DNA of 63,474 nucleotides, filler included, from Reticulomyxa filosa (GCA_000512085.1; 20 parts of 20 records of this genome joined end to end with filler, not necessarily neighbours in it), one strand, 5' to 3'. Counted from the whole stretch's first letter, positions 8,100-18,654 are shown. The notes: generated from the sequence alone by a model not told the origin. A program made the numbers and translations.

Positions 8100-9407
8100 A
8101 GATTTGGATTTGGTTGTTGCCTCTTTTTTCTCGCTTTTTGTATTTGGTGTGTTGTGATATGTTTATTCTTTACCTTGTTTTGTTTTGTTATTGTCTTTTT
8201 ACAAACTCGCCCGCTCATTGCATAATATATATTTTTTTTTTTTGTTCTTTTTTTTTTTTAACATTTTAAATTTTTTTGATTGGCATATGATGCTTGTAGT
8301 ATGGCAAGATCTATTCTTCATTTTTCAATTTTTTCTTGGTTAGACAGTGCTATCCATAATGATTTGTGTTTTTTTAATTTATGTTTCGGGCATATTTGAA
8401 ACTTTTGTAGCGAAACAGGTTGTATATCCATCTTTTAAACATTTGAAATCCGATTCTCCTTAGTTGCTTCATTTATTTTTTTTTAAACGTTTTTCTCAAA
8501 ATCTCCGATAATTGTGTATTCTGAAAGAAATGCCCAAAAATGTTCATCACATTAATACAAAAGTAATTTTAGACCATAAACAATTGTTTTTTTATTCATG
8601 CAATTTTACCCTTATGCAAATATGCCAATATTTTTTGACTGAAAAATTTCACATTATTGTGCTATTTTTATTCTATTTTATAAATCATTGTTACTGGGCG
8701 TGATATACTAAAGTTATAATTTAAACAGTCCAAAGCAAACACTCAATTTTTGATTGTATTTCTGAGTTAACATTGCTCAACTTTTTTGTAATGAACATAT
8801 GCAATTGATGGCAATTTTGTCGAACAATAATGATTAGCATGCATGTATCATGATATCTTTCCTTAATTTTGCTAATTTAGTTCTGAACAAAGTTTTTCCT
8901 TATCTTTCAGCTGTCGATTGTTCTTTATCATTTATTTTGCATTTTCTTTGTAAAATAAATGTAATGCCAATACTTCAATATCAGTCAGTACTTTGATCAA
9001 TCAGCTTTTTTGTTGTGATACACATGATCATTTTTAATGCTATTTATATGCGCTAAAAACGCACTGTGTTCAAGTTGATCATATCAAACAACGGCTAACA
9101 AATAAATCAAGTCATTAAATAAAATGAAAATTGTTGAAAGAATTTAAAATAATTTTGTTTGCTGATTCTGATATTTCGCAAAATTGGAGATCGAAAAATT
9201 ACAATCCAAAGTTGTGTTTCCAAGTTCAAAACGGAAGCACATCAATAACGGATTTTTAGTTTGGCTTGTTGTGCGTGAGTAAGAACTTTTCAGGGCAGAG
9301 GAAAAATTTTGCAGGTAATGTATTGATCAATATGCTCGGGATTATTTTTTTAACATTTATTTCGGTATTCCAAAATTCGACCGAGAAGTAACATTGAAAC
9401 TTAGCCT

Positions 9408-9998
9408 ATGGGTTGCCTGTGTTCAGCACCGAAGCCTCCACAAGAGGTTGACCGAGAAGTACTTTATAAATTTTTGCGAGATGAAGAAACATTGAAAGTG
9501 ATTTGGGAGCAGTTTAATGACAGTGAAGATGCCGGGATTGGCAGAGCTGAGTTTGATACGTTGTTATTTGCGGCGCTTCAAATTTTTTGTCAAGTAACTT
9601 CCCTCTCTGTGTATCCCAAACAAATAGAAAGCGAGACTCCCAACAAGCCAATATATTATAGTATTTAGTATTACACTATTCATCATTACTATCACAATCA
9701 CTACTCATTTTTTTTTTTTTTTAGACACCGTCCAAATAAACACTTTTTTTTTTTTTGGGACAAGCAAGCCCCCATTTCACTAAACGCACAATGAAAACAC
9801 TGGTAGGCAAGAGATCCTAACATGCCACTGCCATCTCGAGAGGCCATGGAACCTTACATTGAAAAATTAAGAAATGAATTAGCACCTAAAATTGACGTGG
9901 ACGGTGATGGTGTTATTTCTTATGAAGAGTTCAAAACCTTTGGAGACTATCTCAAAAAAGAGTATGAAAAAATCGAAAAAGCCTCACGTAAACAATAA
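9408..9998 (+). CDS. Small N-acylated EF-hand calcium-binding protein (exons 9408-9593, 9807-9998)
   Basis: MGCLCS N-terminus (myristoyl/palmitoyl-type motif); degenerate EF loop FNDSEDAGIGRAEF; canonical EF loop DVDGDGVISYEEF; the GT-AG intron keeps the frame. Confidence 0.85.
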
Positions 9999-10641: not shown

Positions 10642-11470
10642 ATGTTGAGCACGGTGATTCCAGAACCGACTTATCCGAAAAAAGAAAGAACTCGCAGAGA
10701 ATCTGCGATTCTTTCGATGCCTAAAGAGTCGTACAGGTTGGTAACTACAAAGAAGATTTTTTTAAAGAGAACGGAGGAAGCAAAAAAAAAAAAAACAAAC
10801 AAACAAAAAAAAAAACATATATGTATATGCATACACATAAATTGGAAAGACCAATTCAACTATTTCACACTTCACCCGTGAGCAAAATGTCAATCTACGA
10901 AGTGGAATCGGTAAATAGCGGCGAAAAATATTTAATGAAAAGTATAAAAAATGAAAGTTGTGTAGCGTTGCAATTGAGATATGAGTTGGACCGTTTGAAA
11001 TTATTGAAGCATCCAATTTTGCCAAAATTGGCATTTATCGACTATGGAGACGCATATTCGTATATTATTTTTGAAAAGTAAACAGCAATAAAAAGCCTAT
11101 GTTTTTTTTTTTTTATATAATACTTACAACATATAACATATATAATAATGATCATGAACACTGAATGACATCAAACATAGATCAAAAGGACAACCATTGT
11201 GGACACCGGAACAGACACAAAAGTACCCAGGTTTGTTCTTTTTGTTAGTATGTTATAAAACAAACAATGGAATATTGAATCCCCATTATATACATATATG
11301 TATATGTATACACATATGTAATATGTATACGAATTTGAATATAACTGTAGAGAACGTCGTCAGGGCAATAACATATCAATTGGCACGTTGCATGCAATAC
11401 TCGCACGCAATCGGAGTCGTCCATCGTGATTTAAGACCGGCCAATGTGATTGTGCATTTTCCAACCCCAG
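10642..11470 (+). CDS. Ser/Thr protein kinase, multi-exon, 3' truncated
   Basis: KYLMKSI (beta3 Lys), ELDRLKLLKHPILPKL, YIIFE, and the catalytic loop MQYSHAIGVVHRDLRPANVIV. Confidence 0.75.
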
Positions 11471-11666
11471 AGTTTGCTTTTTCTCTTGCAATATATGTAT
11501 ATGTATATATATATATACATATATATATGTATATATGCATATATGTATACATACACGCACATTCATNNNNNNNNNNNNNNNNNNNNNNNNNNNNNNNNNN
11601 NNNNNNNNNNTTAATTAATTAANNNNNNNNNNNNNNNNNNNNNNNNNNNNNNNNNNNNNNNNNNNN

Positions 11667-12502
11667 TGATGGCACGACGTCGTCACAGCGGACGTACTTG
11701 ACTTGCGTGCTATGTCACGACACATTGTCTTGGCACGAAGTCCTCGCCGATTTTTCCAACCCTTTCTATTTTTCACGCAATCATTCGCAGCATTGCAAAG
11801 AAATACAATGGAGAAAAAGATGAATTGCATAAGTCAAAGACTATTGAATGTGCCATTTGTTTGGAGCCTGCTTTTAAAGATAGTTTCGTTGCTTTGTGTT
11901 ATATACAAATATATATATATATATTTGTATATATATATATATATGTGCGTTAAAGATGCCAAATGCTGCTTGCTATCACATTGCATTCATGTATTCCACA
12001 CCGAATGCATAAAGAAATGGAAAGAAATCAAAAATAATCAAATCGATTGTCCGTTGTGTCGTACCAAGTCAACTCACTTTATTCCTTCTCAACGCTACAT
12101 CTATGATGAACAACGCAAAAAAGATCACTTTGATCAATTGCTTCAATTCTGGAGCACTAAGCCGTGCAATCATTGGGGTATGCTCCAACTTATTACCTTT
12201 TTTTGTTTTGTGATTGTCAATATAAATATATATATACATATATATTAGAAAAATCACAACGTCGTAATTGCCCGTTTGGCTATCGTTGTCGGTTTGGCCA
12301 TTATGACGACAAAGGTCAATTGATTTCAAAGTCAGATAAACATAAGCATCCTCTTCCTCTGGAAATCAGAAGAAAGCTTGCCGAAAGAAATCAAAATCAT
12401 AATCAACTCCATTTGGATGATGTGTCGATTGCATTTCTTTCTTCTCTTTTTGTTGAGCTTGAATTCCTTTTCACTGCTTTTGCTGATCACTATTCCACAT
12501 AA
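11667..12502 (+). CDS. Makorin-like RING + CCCH E3 ligase, C-terminal part, multi-exon
   Basis: ECAICLEP, intron, CIHVFHTECIKKWK..CPLCRTKSTHFIPS..KPCNHW, intron, CPFGYRCRFGH. This is the makorin C-terminal layout. Confidence 0.75.
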
Positions 12503-12769
12503 AGTTTTCAAATTGTTTCAACTGTTCTTCATTAAAAAAAATCTCTTTTTCGGCATATACTCGTTTCGTCAGTTATCATTTCAAGATATTCTTGGTGTTT
12601 TTGGGGGGGAGGGGGCACAAAAAATTAAAGTGCAAGTAAAAAAGTTCAAATCTTGAAAAATTAGGGTCTTTTTGTATTGATGCTATATTGATACCATTGT
12701 TCGATCCACAATCTTTTTTTTTTTTGAAGTGAACATAAAGAAGTGGAAGCTTAAATTGACCAGTGAGCA

Positions 12770-14754
12770 ATGGCAGAGGAGATACCTGTTTAGTGATTAT
12801 GCATACCCAATCTATCACAAACCTTAGGATCAACAACAAAAAAAAGTGGAGTGAAGCAACACAGCAGCAAAAATACAAAAATTACAAATACTAGGCAGGA
12901 TGGGAAGAAAGAATAGGTCCAGATGGCAACAAATATTATGTGGACTGGGACAGTAATCAAATGTATCGGAAGGAAGAAACAGCCTCAGGAGTCACTCATA
13001 CGCGCATCCCGACACAAGAGCAGATCTCCATTGCTATGCGTCAGTCCGAGATTGAAACAGTTTGCATATGCCAATCTTTTTCAAAAAAAAAAAAAAATTC
13101 TACAACTGTAAAAAAATGAACTTTTTAAAAAAAATGGACAACAGAATAAAGAGAAAGCCGAACAAGTAAATGAAAATGGAGGGACAGACGATGCAAATGG
13201 AAATGAAAATCTAATGAAAATGGAAATGAAGAAGAAGAACAAAAAAGATGAAATTTATAATATAAAAAAAAAGTGAGAAAAGATACCGATGTTGAGTTTA
13301 TTCTTTGTTAGAGCTATAATTAAAAATAAATTGTTTTGAAACATACAAATGGAAATAGGAAAAAGAAGAAATAAAGAAATGGATGAAATGGCTGAAAGAC
13401 AAGGACGAAAAAGATAAAAAAGAAATTGTTACAAACTTTGAGAAATTATCAGATGACAATTTCGAGATATGGTTACTGAAGCAGAGTAAATGGAAAAATG
13501 ATGTAACAAAAAAAAATATTCCCTCAATTTGTGATGCAACAAAAGCTTTTGTTATCTATCATTCCACTGATAGAGTTTCGTTTTTCTCATTTTTTTTTTT
13601 TTTTAATACAGACAAATCGTTAGTTCTTATTACACCCAATACATGCCATTTGATATGGAATAGGACAATCAAGACAACAACGAAGAGAAAGTTAATCATG
13701 TTCTCGTTTTTATTCTAATCTTTTTATCTAATTACAAGCAACAAAAATATATAAATAGTTGGCAGTACAAGTGATAGTGGATGAAAAATCAACAGAGTTA
13801 ATAATGAGAAATTTGACCTTTGAAGAGCTTTTTCGTCAAATTTACAACAATTTGGAATGGAAATATTTGCGAGAAATGAGGAATAAAGATCAAAGGCTTG
13901 AACTAGCTGATTCAAATGATGAAATTATTGAATCAGATGAAATGGTGAAAACAGAATTTGAAAAGAATAAACGTTTATTTAAAGTACTCTGGAGTCCAAT
14001 ACGAATTGAAAAAATAAAAGTAATAAAAAATGCATTAGTTATAATGATTGCCATTAGTGAGTATATTGATAATGAGATATGGCCTAATCTTCCAAATGTA
14101 AAAGAACAAGATGTTGGGAATTTCAAACAATTATTTGAACAAAACTTAGGATATGAATTTGTATGCAATACGAATTTCAAGATGAACAAAGAAGATGTTA
14201 AAGAATTTTTGATAGAAGTAATAACTAGTCGCGAACTTGTCAAGAATAAACAGAAGTATGATGCATTGATAGTGATAGTATCAGGACATGGGGACAAAGA
14301 AGATGTATTGATAACAAGTGATGGAAAAAAAACTCAAATTAATAGTATTCGAACATTATTTGACTGTGATCGAATGAGCTCGTTTCAAAACTTCCCTAAG
14401 ATATTTTTCATCGATGCTTGTCGTGGCACAACTATGCCGAAAAAAGAAAATAATAACACTGCGAGTAGAGGAAGAGGCATAATGCACGATGGCGAAGGTT
14501 TTTTAATGGTATGGTCAACCACGAGTGGATATTCAGTGAGTGACTTGTCGATATTCAGCGAAAGCATAAAATGTCTTATTAGTCAAAAATATCAAAATGA
14601 AACTTTACGTCAAATGCTAAATGAAATTCGAAATGATATTAAAAAAAAAGATTTGTGTTACTGCCTGGAAAGGAGTGACACCATTGACTATGACATTATC
14701 TTTCAACAAAGAATAAGTTTTAGTCAACAGCTAAAAAACGTTGCCGCGAAATAA
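12770..14754 (+). CDS. Caspase-like (peptidase C14A-type) protease with N-terminal WW, UIM-like, helical and PB1-like regions; exons 12770-12787, 12895-13059, 13145-13290, 13359-13574, 13664-13690, 13759-14754
   Basis: Catalytic His in IVSGHG and Cys in PKIFFIDACRG. Spliced N-terminus MAEEIP|AGWEERIGPDGNKYYVDW (WW) and QEQISIAMRQSEIE (UIM-like). All five introns are GT-AG and phase 0; exon 3 needs one extra A in the A9 run at 13264-13272. The protease domain is much more certain than the upstream exons. Confidence 0.8.
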
Positions 14755-16165
14755 GGTAGCCCCGAGTTTGTCTTGTTTACATCTATTTCTCAAATGTGGG
14801 TCCTACAGTCTCGATGAGTACTTTATTTTATTGTGATTACAAGTATCTCTTACTTTTTTTATGTTTGAAGAAAAAGTAAACACTAAATACGCAAAAATGC
14901 GAAATTTCGATAAAGATGTGATAGTTTCGTTCAAAAAGACCCTCTTAGAAATATTTTCAGAGCTACTCCAGTTTTGATAAAAAAATTGTATGATACATTT
15001 TTTTGTTTTCGACAGTTGGCAATTTGTCAAACTTGAGACAACTGAAAATAATCTTTTCAAAGGTAGCCTATCTGATGATTTCTCTACTCTTTAACAATCT
15101 ATTTAGTTTCATGAAAAAAAAATCCTTATGTTTCTTGTCTTTGATTACATCAATACTATACACAAATTAGCATTTCGTACAAACATAGTATAAAAACTGA
15201 TCATAACCTTCTTCCTCAATCTACGTTCCATATATCAAAGGGAAACAAAGAAAACAATACTGAAATTTTTTATTCAATAAAACTATACCACTTAATACAC
15301 AAAGACATTGACAAACTAATAAATTATTATTTACTCTATTGTAGGAATAGTGAGACTGTTAACTGTAATACGAAAGGAACTTAGCTCCAAAAAGTAATTT
15401 CAGTAAAAAGGAAATTAAATTAACAAAGATAATTCAACACAACAAAGGAAAACAAGTAAAAAAAACAACAAAAATGCGTTGTGAAGAAAGGTTTTAACCC
15501 ACCGGGGGTCCCACAGTTCCATTAGTATTTGAGATCGTATAATAGGGACTTGCCTTATACTATTAACTCACATAAGTACATAGTATTAAAAATAATGCTT
15601 ATGTAGATAATATTATATAATAGAAATTCATTTTGAGTATAGAATTGCATGATTATTATATGTTCGAAAGGATCATTTTCAATTATCAAGACACGATAAT
15701 ATGCTTGCATGTATTAAAAATTATTTGCAAAGATATACATTACTACAAAAAATATATATCAATATATATTAGCAATAATTAACCTTTCACTGTTAATTTC
15801 TAATCACTACAGCAACTATATGTCCTTATTATTACCAACAATAGCAATCGTACAACATTATTTCAAATAAATGTGTGAATCAAGTTCATAATTCTTCAAG
15901 TAAATACAATGATAAATGTCTTCCTACATATAAAAAATCAAAAACAATTTTAAAATCTGTTATTATGTTAATTCTCAGAGTAGTAGAACGAATTGAAAAT
16001 TACTTTATTTGCAATTTCATTCAATGAAGGGAAGAAACGTTGAATTACAATAAAATTTTGCTATGGTAACTGATTGAACATGTCCAAAATTGCTTGAAAA
16101 GCAATAATAATAATGAAAAAAACACAACAACACGACAAAAAAAGCATCAACATTTTGAAACACAA

Positions 16166-16366
16166 CTACCAAAATAATCGAATGAGACTCTGTTCAGTGG
16201 GGACACCAACACGCAACATAAAATTGGTCCACATTCCACGAGAGCCTTGGCCTCTGTGCACATATAATCGATTGTTTCCTTTTTTCCAGAGCCCATTGTC
16301 AGGATAGCCCGAAGCGAACAAGGAAAGTAATGTCATCGACAGGCCACAGGACAAGAATCCAACATG
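16166..16366 (-). CDS. C-terminus of a YkuE/TMPPE-like calcineurin-type metallophosphoesterase
   Basis: YPDNGLWKKGNNRLYVHRGQGSRG..LRVGVPTEQSLIRL matches the family's GLY..LYVSRG.G..R.G.P.EI..I.L tail. Confidence 0.55.
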   Translation of the reverse strand, partial: HVGFLSCGLSMTLLSLFASGYPDNGLWKKGNNRLYVHRGQGSRGMWTNFMLRVGVPTEQSLIRLFW

Positions 16367-17052: not shown

Positions 17053-18654
17053 ATGATCGGCCGAAAACGCCCTCACGCTGAGGGACAAAGAGAAGATGCA
17101 CCGGCTCCAAAACGTGCAAAGGTATGTATTGCACAAAACAAAAGCCAATATTTATGAGTTGAGGTACATCTATTTGTTTGGATGTTTATACATTGTATAA
17201 TAATAGATGAGTGGTGGCATATGCCATAAAGTGATGAATTTAATGGCATCATTGATGCCAATTAACTGGAGTGCAAGCCAGGCTCGAAGCGACGAAGAGC
17301 CTGCTTCAAATAGTATGGAGCCTCTGGTGAGGCATTCAGAAGTTAATCTATTTTCTTTTTTTTATTTATTCAATCAATACAACAAAGCAATCACACACAC
17401 ATGTCTATGTGCAATTTGTTCATAAATAAATCTTGTAATTATGTATAATATAAATATGTTTCATGCTATTTGTACATAGATGGCACAGGCTCCAAAGTCA
17501 GATATAGAGCCAAAGCAGCAACTGGAACAACAAGAGCAGCTTGCACAAACGGAGCAACTGGAGCAACCAGAGCGGCCAGAAAAGCGACGAAAGCATTCCA
17601 AACGCAAAGGTAAGGATCGACCGAAGGGACAGCGACGACGACGGGTTCAACGAAAATGTGAAAAGGCTACCAAAGAGCCAAAAAAAGACGACGTGGCTCC
17701 TCAGCCAATAAATAAAAAGCTGCTTGTCCTTGATATGGACAATACAATCATGTATTACAGCACTGAAGTTAGTCTTTGTCTTTTGTTATATGTGTGTATA
17801 TGTTTACATATCTAAACTATTAATACAAACAATCACATACAAATAGGAGTTAACAAACGCAGTTGGAAAAGTGGATCTATTTTTGAATGGTCGAGTCCAC
17901 AATGCATGCGTCAAGCCAAGGCCATTCCTGCAAGACTTTCTCGAGGGCTGCAGTAAATATTACGATATTATAATATTTACTGCAGCAGGAAAAAAATACG
18001 CAGACGACGTGTTGGAACTAATAGATAAGAGTCATTATATAACACGTCGATTATATAATGACTCTTTGACTCTTGACACAGAGTCTGAATTTTATAAAGT
18101 TAAATTTATTTGTGTATATGTAAATAGATATGATTTATATTTATAATTATGATAATAAATAATAGGATATTACTAAACTGGGACGGCCGATGAGTGAAGT
18201 CGTCTTCGTAGACGACAGGAAAACCAGCTGCGCGAAATTCCCGTCCAACTCCATCTGCATTGACGTGTATGCAGGTGCTGACAATGATACAGCGGTAACT
18301 TATATTTATTTTGTATGTTTGCTTGTTTAAATATTGACATTAACATAAATATAAATATAAATTACATCACAATAGCTGGTGCGACTGTTGCCATTGTTAT
18401 TGACAACATTGGCACAGGTGGATGATGTACGCACCGTGTTGGATGCGAACCAGTCTTTCCACTGGGTCTGCGACCAAGCGACGTTCGAAAACGAGTCGCA
18501 GATGCAGTTTTGTGTCTATTTTATTTTGTATAAAGTATGTATGTGTATAGCATATCAAAACACAAGCAAATAATCAACAAAATATATGTGCAAATACAAT
18601 AGATCGTGGAATAACATTTTGGAGGCAGCAGAGAAGTCCACTGGTGGCCATTAA
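17053..18654 (+). CDS. NIF/FCP1/SCP-family HAD phosphatase with a basic, low-complexity N-terminus (about 7 exons)
   Basis: KKLLVLDMDNT (DxDxT), VKPRPFLQDFL..IIIFTAA..YADDVLELID, KDITKLGRPMSEVVFVDD, NDTALVRLLPLL..VDDVRTVL. GT-AG introns; stop TAA at 18652-18654. Confidence 0.85.

Follow-up and report, generated by a model that had tools for sequence, protein, structure and literature searches.

Caspase-7 binds the P1 aspartate of its substrates through Arg87, Gln184, and Arg233, and the Arg-specific paracaspase MALT1 (C14B) binds P1 arginine through Asp365, Asp462, and Glu500, at positions like those of the caspase S1 trio; caspases and MALT1 are both activated by dimerization (PMC4357240). 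In the work of Klim et al. (2018), proteases of the single-celled foraminiferan Reticulomyxa filosa fell together with animal caspases, and the authors concluded that caspases were already present in the eukaryotic ancestor (PMC5982838), a conclusion repeated by Kaushal et al. (PMC10565124), and the R. filosa family is the stated evidence for pre-animal caspases in both papers. The family also serves as the outgroup in animal caspase trees: ETO10778.1 was chosen in PMC10959488, X6NIS5 was used as the R. filosa caspase in PMC11251625, and an outgroup of the same kind roots the tree in PMC11463336. The R. filosa genes have been cited as the only caspases outside animals. In the passages considered from PMC5982838, PMC10959488, and PMC11251625, the label caspase or caspase-like derives from trees and BLAST, with no mention of the S1 residues, an Arg/Lys|Gly site, or the prodomains. 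A search of papers available without subscription, the genome paper not being among them, found no paper noting an acidic pocket or the prodomains of this family.

The window analyzed here is a stretch of 63,474 nucleotides of R. filosa DNA in which short contigs are strung together with spacers. A caspase-like gene of this organism lies on a 4700-base part of the window (11667–16366; an Rfam search of this contig gave no match), and its protease exon is identical to part of ETO25878.1 (P0001), which is annotated as "caspase 3" of R. filosa. The suspicion of the first-pass annotation that caspase-like genes might already be known in this lineage is borne out in print (PMC5982838). On balance, we favor the interpretation that the gene is one copy of a large R. 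filosa family of caspase-fold proteases with an acidic S1 pocket, predicted to cut after arginine or lysine, and that, where sister genes carry a Kelch-, TPR-, Ras-, or TRAF-type module in front of a shared core of helical, PB1-like, and protease domains, this copy likely has a WW-like exon pair instead. The exons are as follows.

12770–12787, plus strand: exon 1, 18 nt with the Met start, ending in Ile-Pro, which completes a WW-type start; absent from the public model
12895–13059, plus strand: exon 2, 55 amino acids, an atypical WW-like domain and a short helix
13145–13290, plus strand: exon 3, a linker rich in N, E, and K, 146 nt, lacking one base for phase 0 as assembled
13264–13272, plus strand: run of nine A in exon 3, ahead of the stop
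13359–13574, plus strand: exon 4, Trp-rich helical domain; the public model begins at ATG 13383 inside it
13664–13690, plus strand: exon 5, 27-nt micro-exon, acidic linker; same peptide and same next intron in paralogues
13759–14754, plus strand: exon 6, PB1-like beta-grasp, then the peptidase C14 domain, then the stop

All of the six exons and five GT-AG introns that had been claimed are present in the sequence, as are the 9-A run and the TGA at 13274. The introns measure 107, 85, 68, 89, and 68 nt, and every junction is in phase 0 except that of exon 3 as assembled, exons 1, 2, 4, and 5 being multiples of three. The ATG of exon 1 is the only one after the stop of the neighboring gene (12502) that has an open phase-0 path to the acceptor at 12894. 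The GC content of exon 2 is 0.47 versus 0.22–0.33 in the flanking introns. P0001 is the translation of 13383–13574 joined to 13759–14751, and therefore the public model has exons 4 and 6 and lacks exons 1–3 and 5; the description of the gene as hidden applies to the latter exons but not to the two that were already annotated. The 27-nt micro-exon is well supported by the paralogous proteins, in agreement with the initial claim: in P0041 an identical peptide is spliced to the exon that follows, and the models of P0030, P0034, P0040, and P0042 read through the same intron after it.

Splicing of exons 1–3 onto exon 4, giving one joined gene, is probable. In the entry frame, exon 3 contains the in-frame TGA at 13274, and another frame is open up to the donor at 13291. 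There are three routes to exon 4: an extra A in the 9-A run, whose present length is likely an assembly slip or recent slippage; use of the donor at 13166 (480 amino acids); or skipping of exon 3 (473 amino acids). Either of the latter two keeps the frame open without any base change. Three paralogues (P0020, P0030, and P0032) show intron-like text right before the helical exon, and exon 4 is therefore probably internal, with 13358 as an internal acceptor. Without correction, however, the assembly reads as two units, in keeping with the annotation: a WW/UIM micro-gene of exons 1–3, with a product of 104 amino acids terminated by TGA 13274, and a short protease gene with its own start codon, ATG 13383. 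The lack of a WW-bearing relative of exon 2 in the family also speaks for such a division, but we regard it as distinctly improbable. Only about 106 bases separate the stop from the ATG, and they hold a GT-AG intron-like stretch where the paralogues have an intron; the eight codons before ATG 13383 match the pre-helix peptide of the paralogues, and the frame past the A-run resembles, by eye, the ends of the paralogue linkers.

It is also unlikely that the locus is a recently duplicated, decaying copy, with a genuine frameshift in exon 3 and a shuffled gene that has become a pseudogene or nearly so. The family does contain many damaged members, several rows having the catalytic His or Cys replaced, and more than one change of frame is needed for exon 3 to give its best reading as an acidic linker. 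In addition, P0002, a close paralogue, has a one-base shift at the site homologous to a second 9-A run (14641–14649 in the window), and its annotated C-terminus is the off-frame reading past that run (off-frame match score 92, next best 54), which fits assembly slips or real slippage alike. Decay is opposed by the state of exons 4–6, which are open across 412 codons with the dyad, pocket, and linker site intact, by the two splice routes that bypass the stop, and by the possibility that slips in the assembly account for shifts of one base at long A-runs. The protease portion of the probable joined gene has the following features.

14011–14754, plus strand: peptidase C14 domain and stop (Pfam PF00656, E 2.9e-20)
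14110–14112, plus strand: Asp182 on helix 1, counterpart of MALT1 Asp365; Asp in 77 of 85 rows
14287–14289, plus strand: catalytic His241, within SGHG
14413–14421, plus strand: Asp283-Ala-Cys285, with Asp at the caspase Gln site and the catalytic Cys at 14419 (DACRG)
14467–14472, plus strand: Arg301-Gly302, predicted self-cleavage site in the linker between the large and small subunits, aligned with Asp|Ser of caspase-8
14542–14544, plus strand: Asp326 in loop L5, at or adjoining the position of caspase Arg341 and corresponding to MALT1 Glu500

AlphaFold2 prediction with a 42-row alignment gave four helices (residues 1–60), a beta-grasp domain (65–144), and a caspase-type domain, with a mean pLDDT of 87.9. 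In this predicted model, the protease fold is nearest to the caspases, ahead of MALT1 and the metacaspases. The VIA comparison of the C14 domain with a caspase chain gave Z 24.7 (rmsd 2.8, 210 aligned), and eight caspase-family chains ranked at Z 21.5–24.7, followed by MALT1 at 19.8 (3v4o; rmsd 3.4, 204 aligned) and 18.7 and by the metacaspases at 17.4 and below. Foldseek gave E 4.7e-12 for the caspase fold, and all 60 of the PDB sequence matches listed for the protease were caspases. The finding that true caspases, and not MALT1, come out on top in both sequence and structure comparisons counts against the interpretation that we favor. It agrees, together with the shared branch of animal and Reticulomyxa proteases in Klim et al. 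(92–95% bootstrap; PMC5982838), with the proposal that the gene encodes a genuine caspase, specific for Asp and activated through WW/UIM recruitment and polymerization of PB1. We nevertheless consider this proposal very improbable, since none of the three caspase S1 residues is kept and the linker site has Arg/Lys in place of Asp. The SGHG and DACRG motifs are both present as claimed, with the His codon at 14287 and the Cys codon at 14419; the latter motif, which had been read as typical of caspases, has Asp at the position of Gln in the caspase motif QACRG.

Counts of the pocket residues cover 101 domains and fragments, which belong to 93 of the 182 fetched proteins, only rows with a residue at the position being counted and related rows not being independent, and the registers were taken from sequence alignment via caspase-3 and PMC4357240, not from superposed side chains. 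In the alignment to caspase-3, Leu175/Pro176 occupy the place of the first S1 Arg. Position 176, near that Arg, is Lys in 14 and Arg in 2 of the 54 rows in which both His and Cys are intact. Position 283 is Asp in 70 of 76 rows and Gln in none, and the 54 intact rows have Asp (52) or Asn (2) there. Position 326 is Asp in 51 of 61 rows and Arg in none, with a register uncertain by one residue, HMMER setting Ser325, not Asp326, on the caspase Arg. The window copy thus has Leu175/Pro176, Asp283, and Ser325/Asp326 in place of the basic S1 pocket of caspases, and its helix 1, L4, and L5 each contribute an acidic S1 residue of the paracaspase type (Asp182, Asp283, and Asp326, the last within one residue).

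The linker differs from that of caspases in the same sense. The column aligned with Asp|Ser of caspase-8, the Asp maturation site in loop L4, is Arg/Lys in 66 of 70 rows, and the next residue is Gly in 65 of 70. Arg/Lys|Gly occurs in all of the 32 full linkers, compared with 5.8 expected, and the linker of the window copy has no Asp ahead of Arg301-Gly302. Four environmental relatives keep both Asp-x-Cys and Arg/Lys-Gly. The conservation of the Arg/Lys|Gly site suggests that L4 is cut in the R. filosa family. From the pocket Asp counts and the linker residues, the charge of the pocket and the candidate self-cleavage residue appear to have switched together, and the enzymes are therefore predicted to be Arg/Lys-specific. 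We consider it highly probable, as far as alignments can tell, that proteases of this family cut after Arg or Lys. Conversely, Asp at the Gln site, the two missing S1 Arg residues, and the Arg|Gly linker make Asp-specific activity unlikely, so that the description of the protein as a non-animal caspase is apt for its fold but probably not for that activity. On this prediction the label "caspase" would not fit the activity by which caspases are defined, and the enzymes are predicted to work in a paracaspase-like manner with caspase-style processing of the linker.

The R. filosa caspases of Klim et al. (PMC5982838) belong to the same family. The two sequences used in animal caspase trees, ETO10778.1 (P0011) and X6NIS5 (P0005), show 48% and 54% identity, respectively, with the protease exon, share the core of helical, beta-grasp, and C14 domains, and have Asp at all three pocket sites as well as the Arg/Lys|Gly site. 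Among known systems, the animal caspases (C14A; caspase-3, -8, and -9) are nearest in fold and sequence, with the same His-Cys dyad and a linker site at the same place, and the initiator caspases resemble the R. filosa protein also in having a long prodomain. They differ in the S1 residues (Arg/Gln/Arg versus Leu or Pro/Asp/Asp in R. filosa) and in the P1 residue of the linker (Asp versus Arg/Lys); no Pfam match to CARD or DED was found in the R. filosa prodomain. MALT1 shares the caspase-type fold and three acidic S1 residues (PMC4357240), but it is more distant in fold (Z 19.8 versus 24.7), it has death and Ig domains, of which none were found in the R. filosa protein, and it needs no L4 cleavage, whereas the R. 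filosa family conserves a candidate L4 site. Metacaspases (C14B) are alike in the Asp two residues before the catalytic Cys, the Asp on helix 1, and the basic P1 residue, which is predicted for R. filosa. They differ in fold (Z 17.4 and below) and in having two additional core strands, inserted after the strand that bears the Cys, so that their beta-7 is equivalent to beta-5 of caspases; no such strand lies between residues 283 and 312 of the R. filosa model, although residues 294–309 have a pLDDT under 50.

The Trp-rich exon 4 noticed at first was indeed modeled as a four-helix domain, with a pLDDT of about 90. This domain is found in 29 of the 46 paralogues obtained by the first searches, twice in some of them. 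It had no match in Pfam, NCBIfam, or PDB sequences, none of the 50 fold-search matches listed for the whole model covered it, and the Atlas gave no usable match for residues 1–150 of P0001 and only a lead of 0.75 for exon 4. It is followed by the PB1-like segment at the start of exon 6.

13759–13998, plus strand: beta-grasp, PB1-like domain; pLDDT 92 when modeled alone; in 43 of 46 paralogues

The PB1 likeness suggested by the first-pass annotation agrees with the fold predicted for this segment. The top nine Foldseek rows were PB1-containing entries (E 0.016–0.065), and the PB1 domain of MEKK3 came first in the VIA comparison (Z 8.1, rmsd 2.1, 69 aligned), a lead tied within Z 1 with FERM, ISG15, ubiquitin-like, and CIDE-N domains. 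No Pfam PB1 match was obtained for the exon; matches to histone H3 with E of about 1 were dismissed as chance. The second cluster of the OPCA acidic motif is kept (Ser in 29, Asp in 32, and Glu in 29 of 34 rows), and the first is partial (Asp in 23 and 17 of 34 rows). At the likely position of the beta-1 Lys, in a register set by eye, the window copy has Gln, and 22 of the 34 rows have Tyr. PB1 oligomers require both the Lys and the OPCA acids (PMC8200828), and self-polymerization through this domain is not supported because the Lys is missing. The absence of the Lys thus makes the PB1 polymerization assumed for an Asp-specific caspase doubtful, and it also counts against the dimerization step of the mechanism that we propose below.

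Exon 2 begins like a WW domain, as had been read. Searched alone against Pfam, it matched WW with E 0.0023 and 18.4 bits, below the cut-off of 26.9, and all 22 of its PDB sequence matches at E ≤ 10 were WW-domain proteins, covering only its first 18–31 residues. The Ile-Pro of exon 1 fills two positions of the WW profile ahead of the Pfam match. The first Trp and the central aromatic pair are present. The second, ligand-binding Trp is absent, with Tyr or Met near its place, and loss of the second Trp in WW2 of WWOX abolishes measurable stand-alone binding of PPxY (PMC9293652). Binding of proline motifs by exon 2 is therefore doubtful, and with it the proline-motif recruitment that had been envisaged for an Asp-specific caspase. 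No relatives of exon 2 were found among proteins of 98–2000 amino acids or among the 182 fetched proteins, and in the same two sets no other member of the protease family had a WW exon; this absence of a second WW-bearing member counts against our interpretation. The end of the exon contains a second element.

13024–13056, plus strand: UIM-like motif, or a worn copy of the post-Kelch helix of the family

The UIM pattern, Hydrophobic-x-x-Ala-hydrophobic-x-x-Ser-x-x-acid after an acidic run, was picked after the sequence had been seen. Exon 2 has the core of the pattern, with a weak acidic run. The six-frame translation of the window, 126,944 residues in all, contains the pattern once, and none of the 46 paralogues has it; when exon 2 was shuffled, 106 of 100,000 shuffles produced it. 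No Pfam UIM match was obtained for exon 2 at E ≤ 10; the UIM-like label denotes a motif match only. The same stretch is weakly similar to the helix that follows Kelch in the paralogues, with a score of 9.5 versus 31–70 for the paralogues' own 26-mers; this likeness was matched by 382 of 20,000 shuffles, and 17 of 39,563 window 24-mers scored as high. By eye, the linker of the Kelch paralogue P0048 has an acidic run and a loose UIM-like helix.

The paralogue searches yielded 29 of 1143 and 17 of 2121 candidates, every one of them labeled as R. filosa. The N-terminal modules of these 46 first matches were Kelch in 12, TPR in 5, Ras in 1, and zf-TRAF in 1, and the remainder were short or partial models or had no Pfam call; these architectures are gene predictions from the same draft assembly and may include merged neighbors. 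In a tree of 40 protease domains, from which six fragments were left out, the window copy groups with P0004 and P0002 (100/98), and the Kelch, TRAF, Ras, and TPR forms are interleaved (the labels of P0004 and P0014 were given by eye). The branches joining the window copy and its nearest paralogue P0004 are 0.044 and 0.012. The N-terminus of P0004 resembles the end of the Kelch region of P0043 by eye, with no Pfam Kelch match, and the module swap therefore looks recent. The helical and PB1-like prodomains are common to a large family, and within the prodomain combination that had seemed unfamiliar the WW exon is one among several exchangeable N-terminal modules.

A profile search found 2090 proteins at E ≤ 0.001, and the best 150 gave 136 new rows, of which only 47 had the protease domain because Kelch proteins filled part of the search. 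Ten of the matches were looked up: six were from R. filosa and four were environmental proteins. One environmental protein, P0055, is a Kelch-protease fusion, and another, P0179, has two tandem C14 domains, both with the His, the Cys, and a Lys-Gly linker site. P0137 combines Hsp70 with the helical and beta-grasp domains but stops where the protease would begin; it may be a real fusion or a merged gene model. Locus scans with alignment A1 gave 11 pattern matches in metagenome contigs, 12 in genome contigs, and 206 in viral contigs, none of which was a relative, and tblastn of P0003 against plasmids gave no match. Several further architectures were observed in the family. P0076 (RFI_20013) has a Kelch region, a C14-like domain without catalytic residues, and many TPRs, and is by its sequence a candidate inactive scaffold. 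The TPR paralogues P0040 and P0042 have a second, N-terminal segment resembling the beta-grasp (a weak E of 0.00056 for P0040, by eye for P0042). The N-terminal 55 residues of P0126 look by eye like the Trp-rich helical domain, and the local profile gave no match.

The arrangement recalls sensor-fused proteases and integrated-domain immune receptors, in which sensors, here Kelch and TPR, and host-like modules, here Ras, the TRAF finger, WW, and Hsp70 in P0137, are exchanged in front of a single effector core within an expanded family. It differs from these systems in that no NTPase or NLR module was seen in the R. filosa family. In the mechanism that we propose, most likely that of a sensor-coupled zymogen, the variable N-terminal module would bind a trigger or scaffold and thereby recruit the zymogen, and the helical and beta-grasp domains would bring two protease domains together. 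The dimer would form in the manner of caspases and MALT1 and would cut its own linker after Arg301 at the Arg/Lys|Gly site, as caspases do at Asp; the processed dimer would then cut substrates after Arg or Lys. By analogy with these relatives, activation by proximity is a reasonably likely mode for the family. A role in defense or cell death is a guess, and somewhat less likely than not, from the expansion of the family and the shuffling of its modules.

If cleavage after Arg or Lys is true, caspases predate animals as a scaffold but not in the activity by which they are defined. The parallel switch in the charge of the pocket and in the self-cleavage residue would make the family a natural test case for the origin of Asp specificity, and the swappable N-terminal modules point to an unstudied signaling or defense system of foraminifera; the WW/UIM combination, a single-copy variant, matters less. 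More tentatively still, foraminifera may possess a large, fast-shuffling system of Arg/Lys-specific, self-processing proteases of the caspase branch, each fused to a sensor or decoy (Kelch, TPR, Ras, TRAF finger, Hsp70, or WW/UIM). Such proteases would preserve a stage at which the caspase scaffold and linker cleavage were in place but Asp specificity was not; the latter would then have arisen on the animal stem and would not go back to the last eukaryotic ancestor.

Other genes were observed on the plus strand of the window. An intron-split gene at 11800–12502, which we take to be makorin-like, encodes a zf-RING_2 domain (E 3.7e-7) with a CCCH finger downstream of it (E 0.0026) and ends 268 bases before the start of the WW gene. 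An intron-split small protein with EF-hand-like motifs lies at 9405–9998, and protein-kinase-like exons at 10725–11566 are cut by a contig end. At 17480–18330 there are exons of a phosphatase-like gene with a DxDxT motif, presumably of the FCP1/SCP type.
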